From a virus (Duplodnaviria > Caudoviricetes), in the IMG/VR virus record IMGVR_UViG_2645727545_000002, positions 1 through 64,000 of that record: a DNA stretch of 64,000 nt; one strand, given 5' to 3'. The notes below the pieces were generated by a model that saw nothing but the letters and a program-made list of their open reading frames with translations, did not search any database and had not been told where the DNA came from. The position numbers and the translations under genes were made by a program. The first letter of the stretch is position 1, and each line of letters opens with the position of its first letter. Of the stretch, positions 4,000 to 63,099 are shown piece after piece.

Positions 4000-6437
4000 T
4001 TACATACTCTTTCTGTCTGCAATTTCAGCCATCTTTGCATCATTCAATCTTGTATCTCCATGAACTCTTGAATACGACAGATATCCATTCATTCTTTCAA
4101 TCTTTGTTAAATCGCTACTTCCACAATTCGGACAAATATCCATATTTAATTCTTCATGACCACAATTATTACAGTATGCGAGCGAAAGATTTACTCCTTC
4201 ATAAAATCCCATTGACATTGCACGTCTTACAAGTGTTTTAATTGCATCGTGATTATATCCAATCGGATATTTACAATATTGAATGCGTCCACCCTCAATA
4301 TAATTCCAAAATCTATGTTCTAAATCCTGTTTTTGAATCGGAGTAATATCTTCCCAAACACCACAATGAAAACTGTTGCTTACATATTCTCTATCTGATA
4401 CTCCTGGAATAATTCCATATTTCTTACGGAACTGTTTTACCTGAAGCCCGCAGAGATTTTCTGCCGGTGTACCATAAATTGCATACAACCAACCATCTTC
4501 TTTTTTGAATTCCTTAACCTTTGCATCGATATATTTTAGTGTTTCTAATGCGAATTCACCATCTTCTACAAGTGATTTTCCATTGTATAACTGCTGCAGT
4601 TCATTTAGTGCTGTAATTCCAAAGGATGCTGTCATAGGTTTTAAAAGTGGTTTGATCTTGTCTGATGGATTTAAATGTCCTCCTAGAAAACCTCCTTCGC
4701 AATACCCAAGCGGATTTGTGGATGCTTTCATCTCTCCCAAATAATCATAGGTTCTCTGATGCAACTTACGGATCATTTCCAAATAGTAATCAAGAACTTC
4801 ATAAAAATCTTTATTTTCTTGTCTTGCTTTTGCAAGAATCATAGGAAGATGCAATGATACTGCGCCAATATTGAATCTTGATACAAAGATTGGCTCATCA
4901 TTTTCATCTTTTGGCTCCATTCCTCCTCGTTCATACCAAGGAGAAAGAAATGCTCTACACGTATTAATCGATTGTCACCAATCGTACTGACTAACTTTTC
5001 CCTCTGAAGCGTCCTAATCTTCATCAACAGGCGGTATCTTTGGAAACAGTGCTTATCTCTGTTTCTACGACGTTACACTCATCACGTCTAGTCGATTGAC
5101 CTTATATATAAGGCACAGCTTCATCTATAGTGCAAACGATCTCTCTCCTATAGACCTATCTGTTAGCAATTCAAATGAATCACACCCACCAAGCAAGTGG
5201 TTTAATACCGTTTTACATGGGCTGATTTGCACTTACCCATAGGACTAATAACTTTTCCATATTTATGGTACATTTTAGACACTGTTGTATCTCCATCTAA
5301 ACTTAACCAATCAGGATACATTGTTTTCGCGGAAGTTTTAATACCTTCTTCGAATAAATCTTCGTTTACTTTTCCTTTTCCGTGTAATTCTTCTGTATAA
5401 AGGAATACAAGTTTTGGAAACAACACAGGCTTTTTATTGCCATCCTTTCCTTGTCCTTCTCTATGAACTCTGAGAAAAGTTTTTGAAGCCATTTTAGCGA
5501 ATGGATCTGTTCCCAACCCAAATGTAATGGTGATAAATGGATAATCTCCTCGGCTGGAAGAGACAGTATTAAACTTGTATTCAAGTCCCTGATAACCTTG
5601 TTCCATATCACGTTCTACTTTTTTCATAGCGTAGTCATTAGATTTCTGTTCAAAATCTGAATGTCTATAATCCAGTAAGTTATCTGCAATATCATAAAAT
5701 TCATGTTTATATTTTTCATAACTTTTTTTAGCATATGGTACTAATACTTCATCAATCTGAGGAAGTGTAAATCCACCATACTCTTGACTCGCAGCACTTA
5801 ATGTAATATCTCCGATTACATCAAATGCTGTATCTAGTGTTTTAGGCTCGTTATACCATACATTTCCCATTTCAAATCCACCACGCATTACTTCTGCGAC
5901 ATCAAAAAGGCAGCAGTTCATCGTATCTCTTCTTGCAGACATATCATGAATATAGATATACCCATCATTAACAGCTTGTCTTTCTTCTACTGTTAAGAAG
6001 AATTTCTTATATAGCTGTTTATTCAATTCATTTAATACAAGACTTCGCTTTGTAGATACGAGAGCACTATCAGTGTTACTGTTTTCCTTATCCCCGATGT
6101 ACATAATTTTCTGACTCTCTTCGTATACCGTATCCATCATATGTACAAAATCAAGTTTATAATTACGATATTGCTGATACTGATACCCTATTTTGGGAAA
6201 CAAATCACGAAGTGTTTTCTCTACAATATTATGAATAAAGCCTACAGGAACTTCATCATTTTCAAAATCTTCTTCATCAATCTCATTAATGACTCTGTTA
6301 CAAATCATTCCGTACTCATCTTGTGAAAATGTAAAATTTTCTCTCTGAGCAGATTTATTGATGGCATTAATAATCTTCTGCTCGTTATACTTTTCCAATG
6401 TTCCGTCCTTCTTAATTACTTTCATCAAATACATCAT
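4000..6437 (-). CDS. nrdD: Class III ribonucleotide reductase, two exons (6437-5235 and 4959-4000)
   Basis: N-terminal ATP cone, YIHD, NCC; spliced junction ISPMG|CRAFLSPW; C-terminal CxxC..CxxC and glycyl-radical loop RMNGYL. Confidence 0.95.
4960..5234 (-). ncRNA. Group I intron (275 nt, no homing endonuclease ORF)
   Basis: 5' exon ends in U (ATGGGT) pairing with IGS GCCCAT; R-like GGTCAATCGACTAG and S-like AAAAGTTAGTC form P7; terminal G; removal restores in-frame MGCR. Confidence 0.9.
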
Positions 6438-14495: not shown

Positions 14496-17400
14496 TCACC
14501 TAATCACCTCATATTCTGTAAGGATATCTTCTAGTTCATCTGTCGCCTCCCACTTACCTTCAGCATTCGGTCGTTTCTTAAATTCTTGCGAGAATTCATT
14601 TATTTTTAGAACAGACCATTGACCAAATGGATTTTCTTTGAAGATCTTACCTTGTTTAATTCTGGTTTTAACTTCTTTCCCTGTTCTAATCTGTCTTGCT
14701 GTAATATATGGTTTTGTTGTATCTTTGTAAGTTTTAAAATCTGTAACCATATAATAAAGCGGAGAAACATTTTCATTGGTATATACGATATACTCAAGAT
14801 ATTCTTTCTCAAATTTCATAGATTCAATAATACCCATTTTTTATTCTCTACGTGACTACAAAGTTCTTCTATTAAACCTACATTATCTATATCCTTATAT
14901 AATGAAGCCGTTTCTTTACCAGAGTATTTTTTCATCAAAAACTCTGTTAGTCCCAATGAATCTAATTTCTTTTTACTGATTTGTTTACATTTTGAAAACT
15001 TTTCATAGATATCAATAACATTTAATAGATATTTATTACCACCAAATTCACTAAAGAAATTTAGACCAGTAAGGATTGTAAGCTGTTTAGAATTGACTGA
15101 TGTTTTCTTCTTAATGTCGTCCAACACTTCTACGAAGCTGTTATATTTATTTTTACTACCAAGTTCATATAATTCTGTGGCTATTTTTTCGTTACAATAT
15201 TTAATAGATGAAATAGACTTATATATTGTGTTTGTTTCTTTATCTGACGTATATTCATTCTTTGATTTTCCGAATTTAATACTCTCTAATGTAATACCAA
15301 AATAATCTAATTCAGCAATAATACGGCTAGTTTTTTCATTATCTGATCTGTATTCATTCAACACTGTTTCAAAATACTCTAATGGATGATGTGATTTTGC
15401 TTCAGCACCATATAGACTATCGTATGCTACTGATACTGCATGTGAAGCATTAAAGCTGTATCTAGCCGCATCATCTACTACTTGCCAAACTTCATCAAAT
15501 CCTTTTTCTGTTCCTAGATTCTTTTTATATCCATGCAACAATTCTTGTCTTAACTCTTCTTTTGCATCATCTGTAAATTTTTTCTTACTAATCTTTTTAA
15601 TGATGTCATATGTATGATCCTCTTTCATGCCGCACCATACTAAAAATGCCATAATAGATTCTTGGTACAACATAAAATGATAACTCGGTGCCAATATTTC
15701 ATCGATTTCTTTTACACCCGTAGTATATTTTTTTCTATTTAGAAATGTATTTACCAAGCTTGCAAACCCAGGTCTAATTGCAGCTACAAAAGCACTCATT
15801 TCTGCATCTGTTTTTGGTTTATATTTTTTAACATTGACGTGGAAATCTCTGTATCAGCTTGATTTAATGTTGATGTCATACCATCTTCATATAATTTCCA
15901 TGTATTTTCATCTATTTTATTTAATAGTTCACGAATATTAGGAATTGGTTGTTTAATTCTTTTATAAAAATTTGAAATTATACGCCATACTGTTACAGTA
16001 AGGTAATCGTTTTTAAGATATTTCCATACATCAGATGTATATCCATCAATGCATGCACATAATTCTCCACCAATCTTAATTAAACCTAATTCTCTAGATA
16101 AAGGTTTATTTGACAAAACAAAACTGCACGGACTTGGTGAAATACTTTCAATTGTACCAATATACTTCTGTGATTCTTCAATAATATTTTTCCATTTCTT
16201 ATCCTCCCTATATGCATCAATATTTTTAGCGACTTCGTTATACTCATGCATTGGAAATTCATATGCTCTACAAAGATTTCTAAATGCTGATGATTCCTTC
16301 ATAGTACCTAGTGCATACATATAGTAAACACCATCATCACCTAATAATTCTTTTGAGGCTTTAATTGGTGCATCAACCTGTGCCCAATTCTGATCTATAT
16401 CTGGTAAAGATCTTGTTTCTAAAATTCTAGCAGTACTCATGAACCTAGTTGGATATAATGGTACGGGTGCTGCAAATCTATCAATTTCAGTAAATCCAAG
16501 CAACTTATTAATATAGAAAGAAACTGCTGATCCCCTACCTGTTCTTGATAAAACTCCACCATATTTTCTCTTCGCAAGATCTACCATTTTTTCATTAAAC
16601 AAAAAATAGTCAGACATTTTAGTATCTTTTATTATTTTATATTCATATGCAATTCCTTTTTTATACTCTTCCCATCTTGATTTATCAACATTTACCTTTT
16701 CATTATCCCATTTACTACATATATGCTTTGCAAGTTCCTTATCTTTTTCTTCTTGTGTATATCCTGGATAAATAGTTGGCATTTTAATTTCCTTGTCAAA
16801 ATATAAATTTTCACATTCATCAAAAATTAGTGTATTTTGTAATGCTTCTTCAATTTGCCAATCTGATAAGATCCCTTGTTTTTTATATCGCTCTACAATT
16901 GTGTCATAATCAGGAAAATCAAGAATAAAACTATCTTCATCACCATAGTTCATTCCTTTACCTTTTAAAAAATTTAGTCTGTCTTTTGACTGTTCCGGAT
17001 AAATATAGTGACTATCATTTGCATGTATTAACTTTAAGCCATAATGTTGTTTCAACAACAGCATATTTTTATTATGACTAGTCTGTATATCATATTGATG
17101 ATTTTGCACTTCTAAATAAAAATTTTTATTAAAATGTCCATATATAGTTTCAAACATAACTTTCATATCATTGCCTGGTCTCAATATTCCGCCCACACAA
17201 GCTGAAGTTACAATGAAGTTGTTTGGATTTAATCTTTTAATTAACTCTATATCAATCCTTGGTTTGTAATAAAAACCTGTTTTATTACTTTCCGACATAA
17301 TTTCATTTAATTCATAAAATCCATCTTGATTTTTTGCTACAATTACAATATGATAATTTGAATTATCTTTTTCTTTTCTATCTTTTACCATATATAATTC

Positions 17401-17606
17401 CGCAGCATATATCATTTTCAAATTATTTTTTTTACATAAATCATACGCCTCTAAATATTTTCCAGTCCATCCATGTTGAGTCGTAAAATAGTTTTTACAG
17501 CCTAATTCTAAACTTCTAGAAATATAATCTGTATTTTTACAACACAATCTAATGTTGTAATATTACTTTCATGACAATGTTTATGATAATTTTCGTATCT
17601 CTTCAT
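14496..17606 (-). CDS. dnaE: DNA polymerase III alpha (PHP plus catalytic core), split by apparent homopolymer frameshifts
   Basis: Start MKRYENYHKHCHES; NDSHY, GRGS, LPDID, YQE, YSFNASH; track ORFs 15796-17547, 14816-15799 and 14496-14837 join at A runs. Confidence 0.9.
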
Positions 17607-55817: not shown

Positions 55818-55889
55818 TGGATCATTCGGGACTTGAACCCGAACCGATCGGTTATGAGCCGATTGCGCTCACCATTGCGCCAATGATCC
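55818..55889 (-). tRNA. tRNA with CAT anticodon, most likely tRNA-Ile2; no encoded CCA
   Basis: GGATCAT/ATGATCC acceptor, GCGC D stem, ATCGG-CTCATAA-CCGAT, TCGGG-TTCAAGT-CCCGA; lacks the initiator GGG/CCC stem. Confidence 0.9.
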
Positions 55890-56577: not shown

Positions 56578-57210
56578 TTATTTTAATAATGCTTTGTCAA
56601 TAATTTGAAAGTTAGCTCTATGTATATACAATGCTTTTCCATCAATCATTAGCTTTGTCATTTTAGGTAGATCATTCGGAATCTCCCAATATACTTCTTC
56701 TCCTGAGTATGCTGTAATAGGTTGTCCAAGCTGTGATTTAATAACGACCACCCGCGACTTCCCAAACATATTTTTGTATTTATTTACAAACTCAGCAACG
56801 AATGTATTATCAGAAAATGAACCATCTGTCATACTTTTAATTCTCTCTTCGATAAAATCAACTTCGCTATTTAGTCCATCCTGTACAAAAATACAAGTAT
56901 CTCCGCAACTTTCAATTTCTTTACCGTCAATTGTAATTGTAATTACAGATGATAAATCATAATTAGTGGATATAGATCCATCACTGCTGTAACTCGTAGT
57001 CTCCACTTTGATCCCAGAAATATTGATTTTGTCTCCTGATGTTTCTAGCACCTTTGAACCATAATTATCATATGTATTAATACGATATCCATTTCCAATC
57101 AATGAACCTTTGATATCGTTAAATTCCGATTCCAACATTGCACATCCAGATAGAGCTGTAATAAAGCAACTCATTGTTACTATAGTTACAATTTTCTTAA
57201 TTTTTCTCAT
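56578..57210 (-). CDS. Lipoprotein (DUF5052-like)
   Basis: Basic N-terminus, hydrophobic core, lipobox LSGC. Confidence 0.7.
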   Translation of the reverse strand: MRKIKKIVTIVTMSCFITALSGCAMLESEFNDIKGSLIGNGYRINTYDNYGSKVLETSGDKINISGIKVETTSYSSDGSISTNYDLSSVITITIDGKEIESCGDTCIFVQDGLNSEVDFIEERIKSMTDGSFSDNTFVAEFVNKYKNMFGKSRVVVIKSQLGQPITAYSGEEVYWEIPNDLPKMTKLMIDGKALYIHRANFQIIDKALLK

Positions 57211-57308: not shown

Positions 57309-58348
57309 TTAACTTGATAATATCTCATCTATCATCTTATCCATCTCATATGTAAATTTGACACAATTACCATGTGAAATATGATTCTTCCAAGATTCAT
57401 AAGATTCTAGGAATTTTCCTTTTGATAACTTATTCTCTTTTACCATCTTTGCCATTTTTCGATATTTTCTTTTTCGCTTTTTCTCTTTTTTTCATTTGTA
57501 AGTTTTCTAATTACTTTTCCATCTTTTGTGACATATGTATGAAAACCACAAAATTTAATTCCGTTTTTAAAAGGTATAATCTGAGTTTTGCCGTTCAATT
57601 CAAGATTTAGTGTGTTTACAAAATCTTCTATTGCACACAAACAATATTTTGCATATTGCTTTGATTCCACAATTAAATAGAAATCATCCATGTATCTTCC
57701 ATAATATTTGACACCCAACTCTCCAGTTATAAAATGATCAAAACCAGACAAATATAATAAAGCAAATACCTGACTAACTTGATTTCCAAGAGGCAAGCCA
57801 TTTCCGCTTGTGCTATCAATAAATTTTTCACATAACCAGTACGTATCTGGATTAGATATAAAATATAAAACAATATCTTTCAGAATATTATGATCAATAT
57901 TATAGAAAAATTTTTTAATATCACCTTTAATAATCCAACAATCATATCCGTATTTCTGATATGCTAAATACATTTGATATTTCAGACAATCCAAACCAAA
58001 CAATGTTCCTTTTCCTATTTGTCCGGCATAATTCGTATATATAAATTCATTACTTAAAATAGGAAGAAGCACATTATCACATAAACTGTGCTGCACAATT
58101 TTGTCTTTAAAACTTCCTGCTTCTATAATTCTCTCTTTCGGTTCATATACTTTAAATCTGTTATATCTATCTACTTCATATTGCTTTGATTCTAAAAGTT
58201 TCTTAATTTGATAAATTCCATCAAGAGCAGATAATTCAAATTTAATTCTACTTTTCGTAAAACCTTTGCCACTTTTTGAATCTCTGTATGCTTTATATAA
58301 ATTTTCAAAATCAATAATCTTATCAAAAACTGTGCTATCTTTTATCAT
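57309..58348 (-). CDS. DGR reverse transcriptase (3' frameshift near 57470-57490)
   Basis: EPKERII, GKGT, KGDIKKFF, GLPLGNQVSQ, RYMDD, FCG; shifted frame continues to SWKNHISHGN...EILSS*. Confidence 0.95.
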
Positions 58349-58465: not shown

Positions 58466-58549
58466 AAAACGGACGAACTCCATAATCGTTCCAATTGCAA
58501 TCGTTGTAGTTCACGTTACCATTACTGTTAACAATCTGAACATAGGAAG
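58466..58549 (-). repeat. DGR template repeat (TR), 84 bp
   Basis: AAC/AAT-rich copy of the VR, between avd and RT. Confidence 0.95.
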
Positions 58550-58574: not shown

Positions 58575-58928
58575 TCATCTTGTTTTATCTTTGTTTCTCC
58601 AGGCTATTGTCATATATTTAATATCACATATCTTCTTCTGCCAATGTTCAACTGTATCAGATCCTATAAGATTTAGATTCATTGACAATTCAACATAACA
58701 AGATAATTTATCACATGAAGAAATAGATCTAGTTTGCAAATCTAATCTCTTCTGTTTTTCTGCATTTATTTGTATTCTATTTGCGCTCATCAGGAAATCA
58801 TATATATTCATACATTCATTCTGAATTCTTTCTATAAGCGTTTTGTATTTTGCCGGATATCTCTTTTTATTCGCTGTCACGGAATATGTATATTGCATTA
58901 AGTCGATAGCTTTTGTAATAACTTCCAT
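58575..58928 (-). CDS. avd: DGR accessory protein (Avd-like four-helix bundle)
   Basis: 117-aa basic helical protein (YP..Y..L..RI, AN, W) between target and TR; ATG at 58928 after GGAGTG. Confidence 0.85.
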   Translation of the reverse strand: MEVITKAIDLMQYTYSVTANKKRYPAKYKTLIERIQNECMNIYDFLMSANRIQINAEKQKRLDLQTRSISSCDKLSCYVELSMNLNLIGSDTVEHWQKKICDIKYMTIAWRNKDKTR

Positions 58929-58973
58929 ATAAATCACTCCAATCTTGCTGAGTTTTGCTCTTCGAATACTTAC

Positions 58974-58995
58974 GAACAACGCTTACGCATTGTTC
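58974..58995 (-). promoter_or_regulatory. Hairpin downstream of the VR (candidate DGR target-recognition element)
   Basis: GAACAATGC-GTAA-GCGTTGTTC: 9-bp stem with one G-T pair, 4-nt loop. Confidence 0.6.
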
Positions 58996-59037
58996 TGTCT
59001 TCATCTCCACAAAACGTTATCGACAAGATAAACAGAT

Positions 59038-59802
59038 TTAAGATTCGGTGATAAAAAACGGACGAACCCCAAAATCGTCCCAACTGCAAACGCTGCAGTC
59101 CACGTCACCACTACTGCCAACAAACTGAACATAGGAAGAATCTTTTCTTGATTTCGTCTGATTTGGAGTTGACAGCCAGTGTGGATAATTGATTAGTGGA
59201 AGTTTTTCACCACATTTTCTGAATAAATCAAAAGTCGGAATAGACAATACATCATCTTTTACAACACCATAATCATTAAATCCATCCATACTAAGCAAGT
59301 TATTTTCAACTGGAGTAATACTATTTCCATATTTACATTTAATGTCTTTTGCAAGCTTGCACTCTTTAAGATATTTTCTTACAGAAGATTCTGCGTAATT
59401 ATTATTGCTGCCAAAACTCATCCTCGTAAGAACTCCATACATAAAATGATATATCTTTCCATCCATTCGAATGTTTGTCCAATAATATCCAAATTCCTCT
59501 TTAAAGTGCTTGTTCATAAAATCTTTAACGGATTCTCTAAATTCATCTTCATATCTCTCTGGATCGTTACTATACCATTCTGGTACAATATCCTGATCGA
59601 CTTTATAAGTCCACTTTGAAATATCAGAAGTGATAACATATTTCTCTGGCGGAATTAATTCTGCTCTCACAAATTTCTTAGAAGCATTAAATTCATTATC
59701 TTCTATATCCAATTTTTCAAGCAAACTTGAATGACTTTCATTCTCTAAGGGTGCAAGTTCCACCCTATTCTTAAAAATAATTCCACTTTTAAACTCACAC
59801 AT
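59038..59802 (-). CDS. DGR target protein, C-terminal CLec/DUF6273-like domain
   Basis: NNYAESSVR..L, WLSTP, C-terminal VR ending GVRPF. Confidence 0.9.
   Translation of the reverse strand: MCEFKSGIIFKNRVELAPLENESHSSLLEKLDIEDNEFNASKKFVRAELIPPEKYVITSDISKWTYKVDQDIVPEWYSNDPERYEDEFRESVKDFMNKHFKEEFGYYWTNIRMDGKIYHFMYGVLTRMSFGSNNNYAESSVRKYLKECKLAKDIKCKYGNSITPVENNLLSMDGFNDYGVVKDDVLSIPTFDLFRKCGEKLPLINYPHWLSTPNQTKSRKDSSYVQFVGSSGDVDCSVCSWDDFGVRPFFITES
59055..59138 (-). repeat. DGR variable repeat (VR), 84 bp
   Basis: 13 differences from the TR, all at TR adenines. Confidence 0.95.
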
Positions 59803-59825: not shown

Positions 59826-60419
59826 TTAGACAATTTCAATTTCTTCTCCAATCAGTTCTTCTAACTTTTCGCGCATTTCTTCCACTGTCATTTTCTTTGG
59901 TTCTTTGCGCTCCCAGATGAGTTCGAGGTTATCATCATCCATAATATGTTCGAAGTTTCTTTCATTTTTAATCTTATACACTCTGATGATGCTAAGTTGG
60001 CTTTTTGCATATCCTTGTGTTAAGTCATTCTCGTAGGCTTCGAGTCTATGGCTCCCCTCTTCTCCAATTAGCATATTTCCAACCACCATTCTCTTTCCAT
60101 AGTCCTTGCATCTGTATTCCACCACCATTCCGTCTTTTAGATCTGACTTTGTAAATTCTTTCTGCATGTAATCACTCCATTCCAGGATTTTATACCCTTT
60201 GCTTTTATAGTACTGATACGGCGAAAACTCTCCTCTGATATAGCACATTTCTTCTTCGCAGAATTTGTAATTTGTCTCTTTCAGGTAGCTTTCGCCTGAA
60301 CACCACTTCATTCCTTGCTTATGCATTTTTTCGCAAAAGTCTTTCGCTTCCTCTTCTGTCTTGCAGTGTACTGCAATCTTATTGTCTGTATCCTTAAATT
60401 CGTCCCAGTTAAATCTCAT
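59826..60419 (-). CDS. Hypothetical phage protein
   Basis: 197 aa; VHCKTEEEA, KSDLKDGMVV and WER motifs of Firmicute phage proteins. Confidence 0.7.
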   Translation of the reverse strand: MRFNWDEFKDTDNKIAVHCKTEEEAKDFCEKMHKQGMKWCSGESYLKETNYKFCEEEMCYIRGEFSPYQYYKSKGYKILEWSDYMQKEFTKSDLKDGMVVEYRCKDYGKRMVVGNMLIGEEGSHRLEAYENDLTQGYAKSQLSIIRVYKIKNERNFEHIMDDDNLELIWERKEPKKMTVEEMREKLEELIGEEIEIV

Positions 60420-60610: not shown

Positions 60611-62074
60611 TTATCCTACAAGTTCATACTTGTTCCTTAAAAATTCACCAATATCATTTACCATGTATGTATAATTTTCTTTTTGATCTTTAATATATGT
60701 AGAATTTCTGTTAAAGAAACTTACCATCCACTCCGGAATTTCTAAATCTATGTTTGTTTCAAAGCTGTACGCAACAACAGCAAGTAAAGAATTCATGTTT
60801 TCAGGTTCAAGAAGTTTCGATGAGTTATCAACCTCTACTGTCCAGTCATCTAACTGAATTTTATATAATTCGATGTCTTCATCAATCACATCTTCTTTAA
60901 CATTTTCTTTGATAAATTCAAGAGCGTTCTGGTCTGAAGAAGCATTATCTATTACATTATTCTCTCCCACTTCGACAAGACATTCTTCATCTTCTTTAAT
61001 ATGTAAATACTCTTTCATGAGAGCAGTTAAGATGTTAATTTTCTCTTTTAAAATAGCCTTACCTTTTGTATGACGATCCTCATTTAATTTGTCAAATGTT
61101 ACTCCATTTACATCTTTTTTATATAAAGACTTTTCAAATTCTTCTACAAAATCCTTAAACTTAATATCATCTAATCCAAATTTAGCAAACTCTTTAAACA
61201 CAGGGATCCAAACAATAACATTTTTTGGCACAAACACTTCTGTGAAATTATCTTTGCACACAGATTCAATCCTGCTAAAATATTCATTTACAGTATCAAA
61301 GTGTTCTTCCGTTGCGTTCTCATTTAGATATTTGCTCATGTTCTTTATTGCACTTTTCCAGTTATCAAAGAAAAACGTTGTCATGACAGATTCACATACA
61401 AGTCTTTCTCTAATACCTTTCGATTGCTGCTTACCGGAACAAGACATACAATTTTTAAAGAATTTATTTTTCTCAGATATTGTCCTTATTTTTCTTGCAT
61501 GTAAATCAATATAAGTAAATGCTTTCTGAGATGTATTCATTCCCAAATGATTGTTGTATCTTCTCACCAATTTACTAATCTGTGACATCGTACAATGCTG
61601 ATGTATTGTAATGTCAATCTGATAATCATCAAACATTTTTTTCAATTCTGGCGGTAACATTTCATATGTTTTTCTTCTCAAATCATATTCAACAGATTCC
61701 CAAATAACTTTTCCGTATTCATCTTTACAGATTTTATTATTTTCATCTTTCTTTTTTCTCTGATATTGGATAATCGGATCTTCTAAAGTAGCTGTAATTT
61801 TATAGTTTTCATGCTTAAATTTAACCAACGCAGAACTTCTTTGCATTCCATCAACAATGTATTGCTGCACAACGTCTTCGTCCAAATCTTCTTCTCCTAA
61901 GATAATTGGTGGAATATAATCATCAGTTAATACAGTTTTGATTAACTCATTCACCATTCCATTTTCCCAACAAAACAGTCTTTGAACGTCCTGATTATCA
62001 CTAATATCTTCTTCCACAATCTTCTCTAAATAAGAATCTAGCGATAATGTCTTTTTTCTAATTTTCTTTGCCAT
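60611..62074 (-). CDS. DUF262/ParB-like domain protein
   Basis: QR.F.W, IPPIIL, IVDGMQR. Confidence 0.75.
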   Translation of the reverse strand: MAKKIRKKTLSLDSYLEKIVEEDISDNQDVQRLFCWENGMVNELIKTVLTDDYIPPIILGEEDLDEDVVQQYIVDGMQRSSALVKFKHENYKITATLEDPIIQYQRKKKDENNKICKDEYGKVIWESVEYDLRRKTYEMLPPELKKMFDDYQIDITIHQHCTMSQISKLVRRYNNHLGMNTSQKAFTYIDLHARKIRTISEKNKFFKNCMSCSGKQQSKGIRERLVCESVMTTFFFDNWKSAIKNMSKYLNENATEEHFDTVNEYFSRIESVCKDNFTEVFVPKNVIVWIPVFKEFAKFGLDDIKFKDFVEEFEKSLYKKDVNGVTFDKLNEDRHTKGKAILKEKINILTALMKEYLHIKEDEECLVEVGENNVIDNASSDQNALEFIKENVKEDVIDEDIELYKIQLDDWTVEVDNSSKLLEPENMNSLLAVVAYSFETNIDLEIPEWMVSFFNRNSTYIKDQKENYTYMVNDIGEFLRNKYELVG

Positions 62075-62094
62075 GATTATATTCCTCCAATTTT

Positions 62095-62720
62095 TTATTC
62101 GCACAATAACACTTTTACATTTTCATAAAGACGCATAGTCCCAAGTATATTGTCTTTATATTCTCTTTCTGTTATGTTTAATTCTTCAATAATTTCATCT
62201 TGAGTGTATCCATCGCATATGAGATCGACCGCCTTTTGTTGCTTATAAGATAAATTGCTCTTATACATTTCAATTTTATCTGTTGTGGGGTGAAGTCTAT
62301 TTATAATTTCCCCTTCTAAATTAAATCCAGAAGAAATGCCTTCTTCCAACGTGTAATCTTCATCTGGATCAACTTTCATATGTATGGATATATCTGGAAT
62401 AACTATAGGATTTCCGTCCTTATCTCTCATAATTTTTCCTTTACTATCTGTTACAAGATTACATCTTTTAAACCTTATACAATCTCTTTTCCACGTTTCT
62501 TTTCTTCTTACAAGGTTTCCATAGAAATATGTACTAAATTTACAGTTTTTCGACTCATCATATGTATCCATACTCTTCAGAAGAATATCGACAGCTTTAT
62601 CATAATAATCATCCAATACATTTTCGGGATATTTGTTTTGGAAATGATTTTGTCGCATATTTTACGAATTTTTTTCATATCATTTCCGATATAGTCTTCG
62701 AGAATTTTATTCTTGTCCAT
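62095..62720 (-). CDS. Phage sigma-70-like factor (5' frameshift)
   Basis: YDESKNCKFSTYF (region 2) and LSYKQQ...GYTQDEI (region 4); true start MDKNKIL at 62720. Confidence 0.7.
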
Positions 62721-62741: not shown

Positions 62742-62879
62742 ATATTTAGATATCTATTTTTTATATTCGCTTTTATGAATACAACATACACCACATCTGA
62801 ATATTTGTCAATAAATATATTCACATATCTGAATATTCCTCCATTGACATATGAATATATAATGTTATAATCTAAATAT
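62742..62879. promoter_or_regulatory. Divergent promoters with repeated operator-like sites
   Basis: Plus: TTGACA (62844), 16-nt spacer, TGnTATAAT (TATAAT at 62866). Minus: TTGACA (62811-62806), 17-nt spacer, TATGTT. Palindromes ATATTCA-N6-TGAATAT. Confidence 0.7.
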
Positions 62880-62892
62880 TAGGAGGTGTAAT

Positions 62893-63099
62893 ATGTTTTC
62901 ATACAAACCTTTGCTGAAGCTGCTTATTGATAACGACTTAAGCAAAACTCAATTTCGTTTAGAAACCGGAATAAGTATGGCTACATTAGCCAAGATTGGT
63001 AAAGATGAATATATTTCTATGTCCACTCTTGACACCATTTGCAAATATTTCGATTGTAAAATTGAGGATGTAGTCAAATTTATCAATGATGATAAGTAG
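62893..63099 (+). CDS. XRE/Cro-C1 HTH regulator
   Basis: SYKPL..LL...ISMATLAKIGK..IS..TL..IC..F.C.I.D; AGGAGG RBS; only convincing plus-strand gene. Confidence 0.9.
   Translation: MFSYKPLLKLLIDNDLSKTQFRLETGISMATLAKIGKDEYISMSTLDTICKYFDCKIEDVVKFINDDK

Follow-up and report, generated by a model that had tools for sequence, protein, structure and literature searches.

Phage DGRs have been regarded almost wholly as a means of switching tropism through changes in tail proteins, and surveys of gut viromes have recently tied them to host range via adsorption. In the DGR of Bordetella phage BPP-1 (Mtd, Avd, TR, and bRT), the elements are arranged in the order target, avd, TR, and RT, differences between TR and VR are adenine-specific, and VR lies at the C-terminal end of a C-type lectin (CLec) fold and is followed by a hairpin; the target, Mtd, is the receptor-binding protein of the tail-fibre tip and is encoded together with the tail genes. 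The two-target DGRs of gut Firmicutes phages (nd4/nd12 with tentaclin and tgt2, PMC10743442; Toutatisvirus, bioRxiv 10.1101/2024.10.15.618418) already provide examples of DUF6273 CLec targets, of dual targets, and of remote VRs. In these systems, two VRs depend on a single TR, both are in DUF6273/CLec domains and one is about 17-18 kb away, and some relatives retain the targets after loss of the DGR. These targets have Ig-like anchor domains or lie beside tail genes and have been read as virion proteins, and in tentaclin itself the VR-bearing CLec domain is N-terminal, with Ig-like domains and a C-terminal anchor motif after it (PMC10743442). In four gut prophages, a second VR was found near counter-defence genes, while their primary target is still a tail protein (Nature 2025, PMC12629997). 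Intracellular targets have also been proposed for cellular DGRs of cyanobacteria (PMC7517822); these targets are reportedly chromosomal and carry kinase or signalling domains.

Here we analyzed a DGR in a window of 64,000 nt (the whole stretch of DNA examined, i.e., positions 1 to 64,000 of a linear IMG/VR virus record of 136,328 bp that is 81% complete according to CheckV). It shares with BPP-1 the gene order, the adenine-specific differences between TR and VR, the position of VR at the C-terminal end of a CLec fold, and the hairpin after VR. Unlike in BPP-1, its targets are encoded in the non-structural arm of the genome, the tail module lacks a VR, and the N-terminal part of the main target is an unrelated 100-aa module. 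The presence of one TR and two VRs, one of which is remote and both of which lie in DUF6273/CLec domains, as well as the existence of relatives that keep the targets after losing the DGR, resembles the tentaclin and Toutatisvirus systems. In contrast to tentaclin, however, the first target has its CLec domain and VR at the C-terminus, and lacks an Ig-like domain in both the AF2 model and Pfam searches, and both targets occur in an early/replication context. Unlike in the prophages of PMC12629997, neither target appears to be structural and the N-terminal domain of the first one is tied to early operons. The idea that a cytoplasmic CLec domain is diversified while a functional domain of the same protein stays constant is shared with the cyanobacterial DGRs (PMC7517822), although the protein described here is phage-borne and its N-terminal domain is uncharacterised. 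In the literature, we found no phage DGR reported to have non-structural targets exclusively. Considering the non-structural arm in which the targets are located, the VR-free tail module, the conserved order with sigma factor-like and DUF262 genes, and the occurrence of the N-terminal domain in early operons, we regard it as somewhat probable that both targets are non-virion, intracellular hypervariable binders.

A DGR cassette with one TR and two VRs

The minus strand of the window contains a complete DGR consisting of target 1, avd, TR, and RT. Target 1 (59038-59802, minus strand) encodes a soluble, acidic protein of 254 aa, and VR1 (59055-59138, minus strand), the 84-nt repeat partner of TR, is located within this ORF. 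TR (58466-58549, minus strand; 84 nt with 23 adenines) follows the gene of the Avd accessory protein (58575-58979, minus strand; phrog_3206 "Avd protein of DGR", 5e-18), whose true start is probably the ATG at 58928, as the profile match starts only at residue 18. The DGR reverse transcriptase of 302 aa (57440-58348, minus strand; RVT_1, 4.7e-14; generic RT model of PADLOC, 2e-35) lies 118 nt from TR. On the coding strand, VR1 differs from TR at 13 of 84 positions, and all 13 are TR adenines (the chance that 13 differences all hit the 23 adenines is ~2e-9), which, together with the adjoining Avd and RT genes, bears out the original prediction that the ORF at 59038-59802 is a DGR target. Judging from these features, the cassette is a predicted working DGR of the BPP-1 type (target, avd, TR, and RT).

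At 28 IMG/VR loci the target is 83-97% identical, and 22 of them retain avd, TR, and RT with identical spacing. VR and TR differ at 11-23 sites in each of these 22 related cassettes, 10-22 of these sites being TR adenines; TRs are near-identical and VRs have diverged at adenine sites, a pattern indicative of recent or ongoing diversification among the VRs of these relatives. The target 1 and target 2 families each fall into hundreds of clusters at 90% identity. Attention had previously been drawn to a CxxC motif created by the current state of VR1. VR1 does encode CSVC at the place where TR encodes YNDC: next to an invariant Cys, a TR adenine has changed so that TAC reads TGC. The motif is indeed absent from TR. 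However, CxxC is read in 13 of 27 related VRs, implying that it is a routine outcome of diversification and nothing unusual, and it was rejected as a special feature.

A search for more VR copies in the rest of the prophage had been proposed along with the original prediction. TR BLAST against the whole 136,328-bp contig revealed VR2 (contig 77623-77706; L001 13623-13706), which lies outside the window, 18.5 kb upstream of VR1, at the 3' end of the ORF of target 2 (contig 77585-78226, minus strand; L001 13585-14226; 213 aa). All 14 differences between VR2 and TR are at adenines (P about 3e-10), and VR1 and VR2 carry different substitutions. Target 2, for which at least 406 close relatives were found, consists of a DUF6273/CLec domain and a short N-terminal extension without any anchor domain; it is 33% identical to target 1 over 129 residues, with the CLec domain alone in common. 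Its neighbors are small accessory genes, and a split sliding clamp-like gene is nearby (contig 75098-76266; L001 11098-12266), whose 82-aa and 327-aa ORFs appear by eye to be one frameshift-broken DnaN-like sliding clamp.

An element of ~33 nt on the 3' side of VR1, which extends across the stop codon (59014-59046, minus strand), is also present on the 3' side of VR2 and absent after TR, and is a candidate homing (IMH-side) element. In addition, a G+C-rich hairpin of 9 bp is found in the sequence ~60 nt after VR1 (58974-58995, minus strand), and VR2 has a comparable 8-bp G+C hairpin ~60 nt downstream, whereas TR lacks one. The shared element and the hairpin after both VRs would fit two functional homing sites.

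Domain architecture of the target 1 protein

The family founded on target 1 has at least 877 members, almost all of them 253-258 aa in length. The protein has a pI of 5.2, and its hydropathy profile reveals no signal peptide, hydrophobic N-terminal stretch, or TM segment. Considering that the N-terminus is not hydrophobic and that the top Kyte-Doolittle window of 19 residues reaches only 0.54, neither a signal peptide nor a membrane helix is expected, which agrees with what had been predicted for this 254-aa protein. Both targets are Cys-rich (six and nine Cys residues).

The AF2 model of target 1, based on an alignment of 38 sequences, is one compact globule (pLDDT 94.4, pTM 0.87), and neither the model nor Pfam revealed an Ig-like domain, fibre repeat, or collar domain, consistent with the previously noted lack of fibre/Ig repeats. 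The globule contains a small alpha/beta module, here referred to as the N-domain (residues 1-102; 59497-59802, minus strand), and a CLec-fold (DUF6273-like) domain (residues 100-254; 59038-59505, minus strand) with VR at its C-terminal end. Using VIA, the closest solved folds to residues 100-254 were the N-terminal DUF6273 domain of 9qa6 (Z 13.6, 150 residues aligned, rmsd 2.7) and the DGR target TvpA of Treponema denticola (2y3c, Z 7.9), followed by many C-type lectins. 9qa6 is the IgA peptidase of Thomasclavelia ramosa, and its N-terminal domain is called DUF6273 in PMC12402451. Unlike TvpA (a lipoprotein) and 9qa6 (a sortase substrate), both of which are exported surface proteins (PMC12402451), target 1 has no export signal. 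Matches of the CLec part in BFVD are DUF6273 phage proteins; against Pfam DUF6273 (PF19789), target 1 scores 14.6 bits versus a cut-off of 23.5, and its homologues P0046 and P0085 pass the cut-off with 26-29 bits. The modelled residues 100-254 are thus predicted to be a C-type lectin fold with VR on the C-terminal strands, and the AF2 and VIA results confirm the earlier division of the protein into an N-terminal domain of ~100 aa and a CLec/DUF6273-like domain.

Full-length homologues of target 1 were absent from GenBank phage records, where only N-domain matches were found, and GTDB species genomes yielded a single match (48%) in a Roseburia MAG. Sequence searches of PDB with the family profile and with P0171 gave no match.

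Location of the targets relative to virion genes

The large ORFs of the window encode DNA ligase, RecD-like helicase, DNA polymerase, DnaB, NrdD, an ATPase, and NAMPT, i.e., replication and nucleotide metabolism genes. No structural gene was found among them, as had been stated for this window. Beyond it, a plus-strand arm that starts at about 90 kb contains helicase, exonuclease, integrase, anti-repressor, and fragmented terminase-like ORFs.

The virion genes could be located in G001, a related provirus of 165,997 bp (99% complete) that is co-linear with our contig and reaches about 25 kb past its right end. G001 encodes TerL (516 aa, 43.2-44.7 kb; phrog_2, 2.7e-13), a tape measure protein (11.7-17.5 kb; 1914 aa plus a 404-aa piece), an Ig-domain tail protein, and a minor tail protein of 1796 aa (2.6-8.0 kb). 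Target 1, TR, and VR2 of this provirus are found at 94.1-94.9 kb, 95.4 kb, and 77.7 kb, respectively, and the late genes are located 50-90 kb away from target 1 on the opposite strand. In near-complete relatives, target 1 is 77-92 kb from the tail genes and 50 kb from TerL, again on the other strand; thus, unlike Mtd-like virion receptor-binding proteins, it is neither in nor beside the tail module. TR-like matches in G001 and G003 (95% complete) are limited to TR, VR1, and VR2, implying that no gene of the virion module is a DGR target in this lineage. Both targets belong to the leftward, non-structural arm, where their neighbors are regulatory, replication, and small accessory genes.

TerL of G001 and that of SPbeta-group Bacillus phages share 44% identity across 96% of the G001 protein, which marks the phage as SPbeta-like. 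The size class also fits, as the relatives are 160-166 kb, and we take the genome to be that of an SPbeta-like temperate phage of roughly 165 kb. A host in Lachnospiraceae is suggested by short DNA matches to R. gnavus phages, a Lachnospiraceae source name, and the Roseburia MAG mentioned above.

Conserved gene order and putative promoters upstream of target 1

As noted in the original prediction, target 1 is located downstream of a sigma factor-like gene and a DUF262 gene. All three are on the same strand. The sigma factor-like protein (62095-62658, minus strand; phrog_351, 2.5e-7) is encoded by the first gene of the unit, which overlaps by 10 nt with the gene of a DUF262/GmrSD_N-like protein (60611-62104, minus strand; NsnA-like in PADLOC, 3.7e-10). 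Directly upstream of target 1 is the gene of a 197-aa protein (59826-60419, minus strand), which is variable or absent among relatives. Genes between 62658 and 57440 are co-directional and tightly packed, and no intrinsic terminator was predicted between these positions.

A sigma-70-type promoter-like site (62783-62811, minus strand) faces the row from the sigma factor-like gene to RT, and a divergent promoter (TTGACA-16-TGxTATAAT, with an extended TG) and a 68-aa gene are found at 62844-63099 on the plus strand; these promoter calls are consensus matches (10/12 and 12/12, respectively), and in this AT-rich region such matches are no commoner than in shuffled sequences. The 68-aa protein, which is 100% conserved in relatives that have the gene, looks from its sequence like a small XRE-type HTH regulator, and the divergent promoter region (62783-63099) looks like a local switch that may control the unit from the sigma factor-like gene to the DGR. 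A terminator-like hairpin (62978-62992, minus strand) also lies within this region.

The order of sigma factor-like gene, DUF262 gene, (small genes), target, avd, and RT is also present in phages of 145-216 kb whose targets are 45-54% identical (L117 and L120-L123). At six loci with enough downstream sequence (L024, L031-L033, L118, and L119), the target is present and avd and RT are gone, and the relative G002 has both VR genes and no TR. Retention of the targets in these relatives suggests that the target has a standing function of its own.

Directly after RT, a gene of the window (56578-57210) encodes a DUF5052 protein (7e-76) whose signal is of the lipoprotein type (…LSGC). Few relatives (L024, L025, and L033) have this gene, and in most it is replaced, giving it the look of exchangeable cargo. 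A single tRNA-Met (CAT) gene (55818-55889, minus strand) is found in the window downstream of the DGR unit.

Parts of the stretch occur in 18 RNA runs, all as assembled contigs; as contigs of 147 kb are present, DNA carry-over is likely in the metatranscriptomes. RNA runs of isolates come from relatives that lack the DGR stretch or do not cover it, and their contigs do cover the sigma factor-like and DUF262 genes.

The N-domain in early regions of unrelated phages

Folded alone with 57 sequences, the N-domain (residues 1-102) gave a pLDDT of 93.8. A search of its fold in PDB yielded no convincing match (best Foldseek E-value, 0.88), RNase PH-like subdomains, the best VIA wide result (Z 4.8), were also unconvincing and were rejected, and scores in the protein-atlas comparison were 0.87 or lower. 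No report of the N-domain family was found in the literature.

Searching 1.8 billion representatives exhaustively with HMMER returned 781 hits, which include full-length relatives, CLec-only matches, and many proteins that align to residues 1-100 only. The latter are 140-390 aa in length, and their C-terminal part consists of nonapeptide repeats (xNSxVxxMx) and not of a CLec domain; Pfam gave no match for ten N-domain proteins with other C-terminal parts. Retrieval by alignment of the N-domain/repeat proteins provided 80 loci, mostly phage contigs of 30-47 kb. Members of this family (P0156, P0171, and others; loci L034-L088, e.g., L037 8001-8867) occur in temperate phages of 30-47 kb, directly after the repressor/cro (or Ant) switch. 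Their repeats possibly form a beta-helix, and many contigs end inside the repeats.

The N-domain gene is located in the early/replication region in every context examined. In L037, the order is endolysin, serine integrase (minus strand), Sie-like gene (minus strand), repressor (minus strand), an 86-aa ORF (plus strand), and the N-domain gene (plus strand), followed by Erf-like and DnaD-like genes, a layout common to 16 further loci. The N-domain gene comes after a CI-like repressor (minus strand) and an Ant anti-repressor (plus strand) and before Erf in L065, is flanked by helicase and primase in L073, and by tyrosine integrase and a Sak-like annealing protein in L077. In the complete, annotated genome of Dulem virus 35, it is located between the repressor pair and replication helicases. 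These five small temperate phages are 40-45 kb and have compact structural modules. Across the five unrelated phage backbones, gene position identifies the N-domain protein as the product of an early-region, lytic-strand gene.

Based on these comparisons, the N-domain is predicted to be a mobile module with two alternative C-terminal partners, either CLec or nonapeptide repeats, and it seems that the large phages kept the N-domain but exchanged its repeat partner for a CLec domain that the DGR can address. Domain-swap logic has been described for tail proteins (PMC12636319), and the same logic would operate here on an early protein. We name the N-domain as a new early-gene family with two alternative binding modules.

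Possible roles of the diversified targets

We infer that the targets are expressed early, act in the cytoplasm, and meet a variable intracellular ligand. According to established knowledge of DGRs, RT would introduce errors at adenines as it copies TR RNA, and the VRs would be replaced by the cDNA, an outcome visible in the sequences analyzed here. The DGR would in this way diversify two small, soluble, non-virion proteins of the CLec fold, and a phage or prophage population would come to contain cytoplasmic CLec proteins with differing binding surfaces. Inside the cell, the variable surface may bind a partner that itself varies, a host immunity or takeover target being the most plausible one, and the constant N-domain may provide a fixed activity or docking function. 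Binding inside the cell instead of tropism switching had been suggested from the anatomy of the protein; the anatomical points all hold and the comparative context points the same way, which gives this interpretation partial support. The emphasis on CxxC as something unusual does not hold.

It is also possible, albeit tentatively, that the system represents antibody-like counter-defence, in which DGR-made cytoplasmic CLec binders neutralise or redirect variable host immunity proteins and thereby adapt the phage inside the cell. With similar caution, one of these binders might owe its constant part to a conserved effector or adaptor domain of early genes, which other phages couple to a repeat domain. 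That the target binds host defence proteins is a guess, and the lack of any defence-profile match in PADLOC for target 1, target 2, and P0156 counts against it.

It seems rather unlikely that target 1 is a virion accessory receptor-binding or decoration protein encoded apart from the structural module, with an N-domain that docks on the tail or head and a DGR that switches tropism or adhesion. This explanation has precedents, as all phage DGR targets with demonstrated function are receptor-binding virion proteins, with BPP-1 Mtd and the Hoc-like and tentaclin targets as analogues, and remote second targets are known in phages whose targets are thought to be structural. A constant N-terminal module joined to a swappable C-terminal binding domain is the classic build of a receptor-binding protein, and as the N-domain has no known fold, its structure would allow a virion-docking role. 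Large phages scatter some virion or decoration genes outside the main module, and position alone does not fix timing. DUF6273 targets of gut phages have also been read as virion receptor-binding proteins (PMC10743442; bioRxiv 10.1101/2024.10.15.618418; PMC12636319). However, the distance of 50-90 kb between the target 1 gene and the virion module, together with the opposite strand, and the synteny with sigma factor-like and DUF262 genes across deep divergence argue against a virion protein, and the position of the N-domain between cro/Ant and recombination/replication genes in five small temperate phages would be unexpected for a tail protein. Moreover, target 1 lacks any Ig-like, fibre, or collar domain, and target 2 any anchor domain.

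A prophage-expressed intracellular sensor that protects the lysogen, in which the CLec domain recognises proteins of superinfecting phages, the N-domain is the effector, and DUF262 belongs to the same defence island, appears improbable. The sigma factor-like gene at the head of the unit is typical of a lytic cascade, although the separate divergent promoter pair and the HTH-like gene could allow control apart from it and the sigma/DUF262 stretch is covered by RNA contigs of isolates. The small phages carry the N-domain gene on the lytic (cro/Ant) strand and not on the repressor strand, even if a Sie-like gene is near it in one of them (L037). The DUF262 neighbor matches the candidate defence component NsnA (3.7e-10), whereas target 1, target 2, and the N-domain protein P0156 have no match to any defence family in PADLOC. 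Cellular DGRs are reportedly linked by one study to intracellular conflict systems. A link of cellular DGRs to anti-phage defence is also stated in PMC12629997. Finally, a soluble protein freed at lysis that acts outside the cell, e.g., by coating host or neighbor cell surfaces, mucus, or decoys, is very improbable, for although the CLec fold is typically extracellular, the high Cys content would also fit extracellular life, and a virion anchor is absent, the protein has no secretion signal, its N-domain is common to early-operon proteins, and a freed protein would be diluted and bring only weak selection on the phage that encodes it.

If the targets are indeed non-virion intracellular binders, hypermutation would also serve interactions after entry in a widespread lineage of large gut phages (at least 877 and 406 relatives of the two targets, respectively), and the targets would offer a natural scaffold for evolving intracellular binders.

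Broken and split genes

TerL and the next large gene are broken into ORFs of 150-375 aa in the present contig (114.3-119.7 kb; L003 10356-15658), with an endonuclease gene between the terminase pieces. The same two genes are intact in G001 (L116 1477-4728), where the second encodes 561 aa without family match and is possibly the portal; frameshifts, sequencing errors, or an intron are therefore likely behind the broken genes. Stop-codon recoding was considered as a cause of the many short ORFs and rejected, as no code gave a clear gain and the TerL and portal-like genes are intact in G001. We also considered the motif RGWGAATAA as a YonO-type late promoter in the plus-strand arm (contig 90046-132666; 11 plus-strand and 24 minus-strand copies) and rejected it, as plus-strand copies are mostly located 5-12 nt before ATG, like a Shine-Dalgarno sequence plus spacer. 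In G001, the 404-aa and 1914-aa parts of the tape measure (L114 11731-17475 and L115 2395-7122) have an HNH/homing endonuclease gene in between. Within the window, DNA polymerase (14816-17547) is present as two abutting ORFs of 583 and 327 aa with a 4-nt overlap and NrdD (4000-6437) as two ORFs about 280 nt apart, and both pairs could be split genes, introns, or frameshifts.
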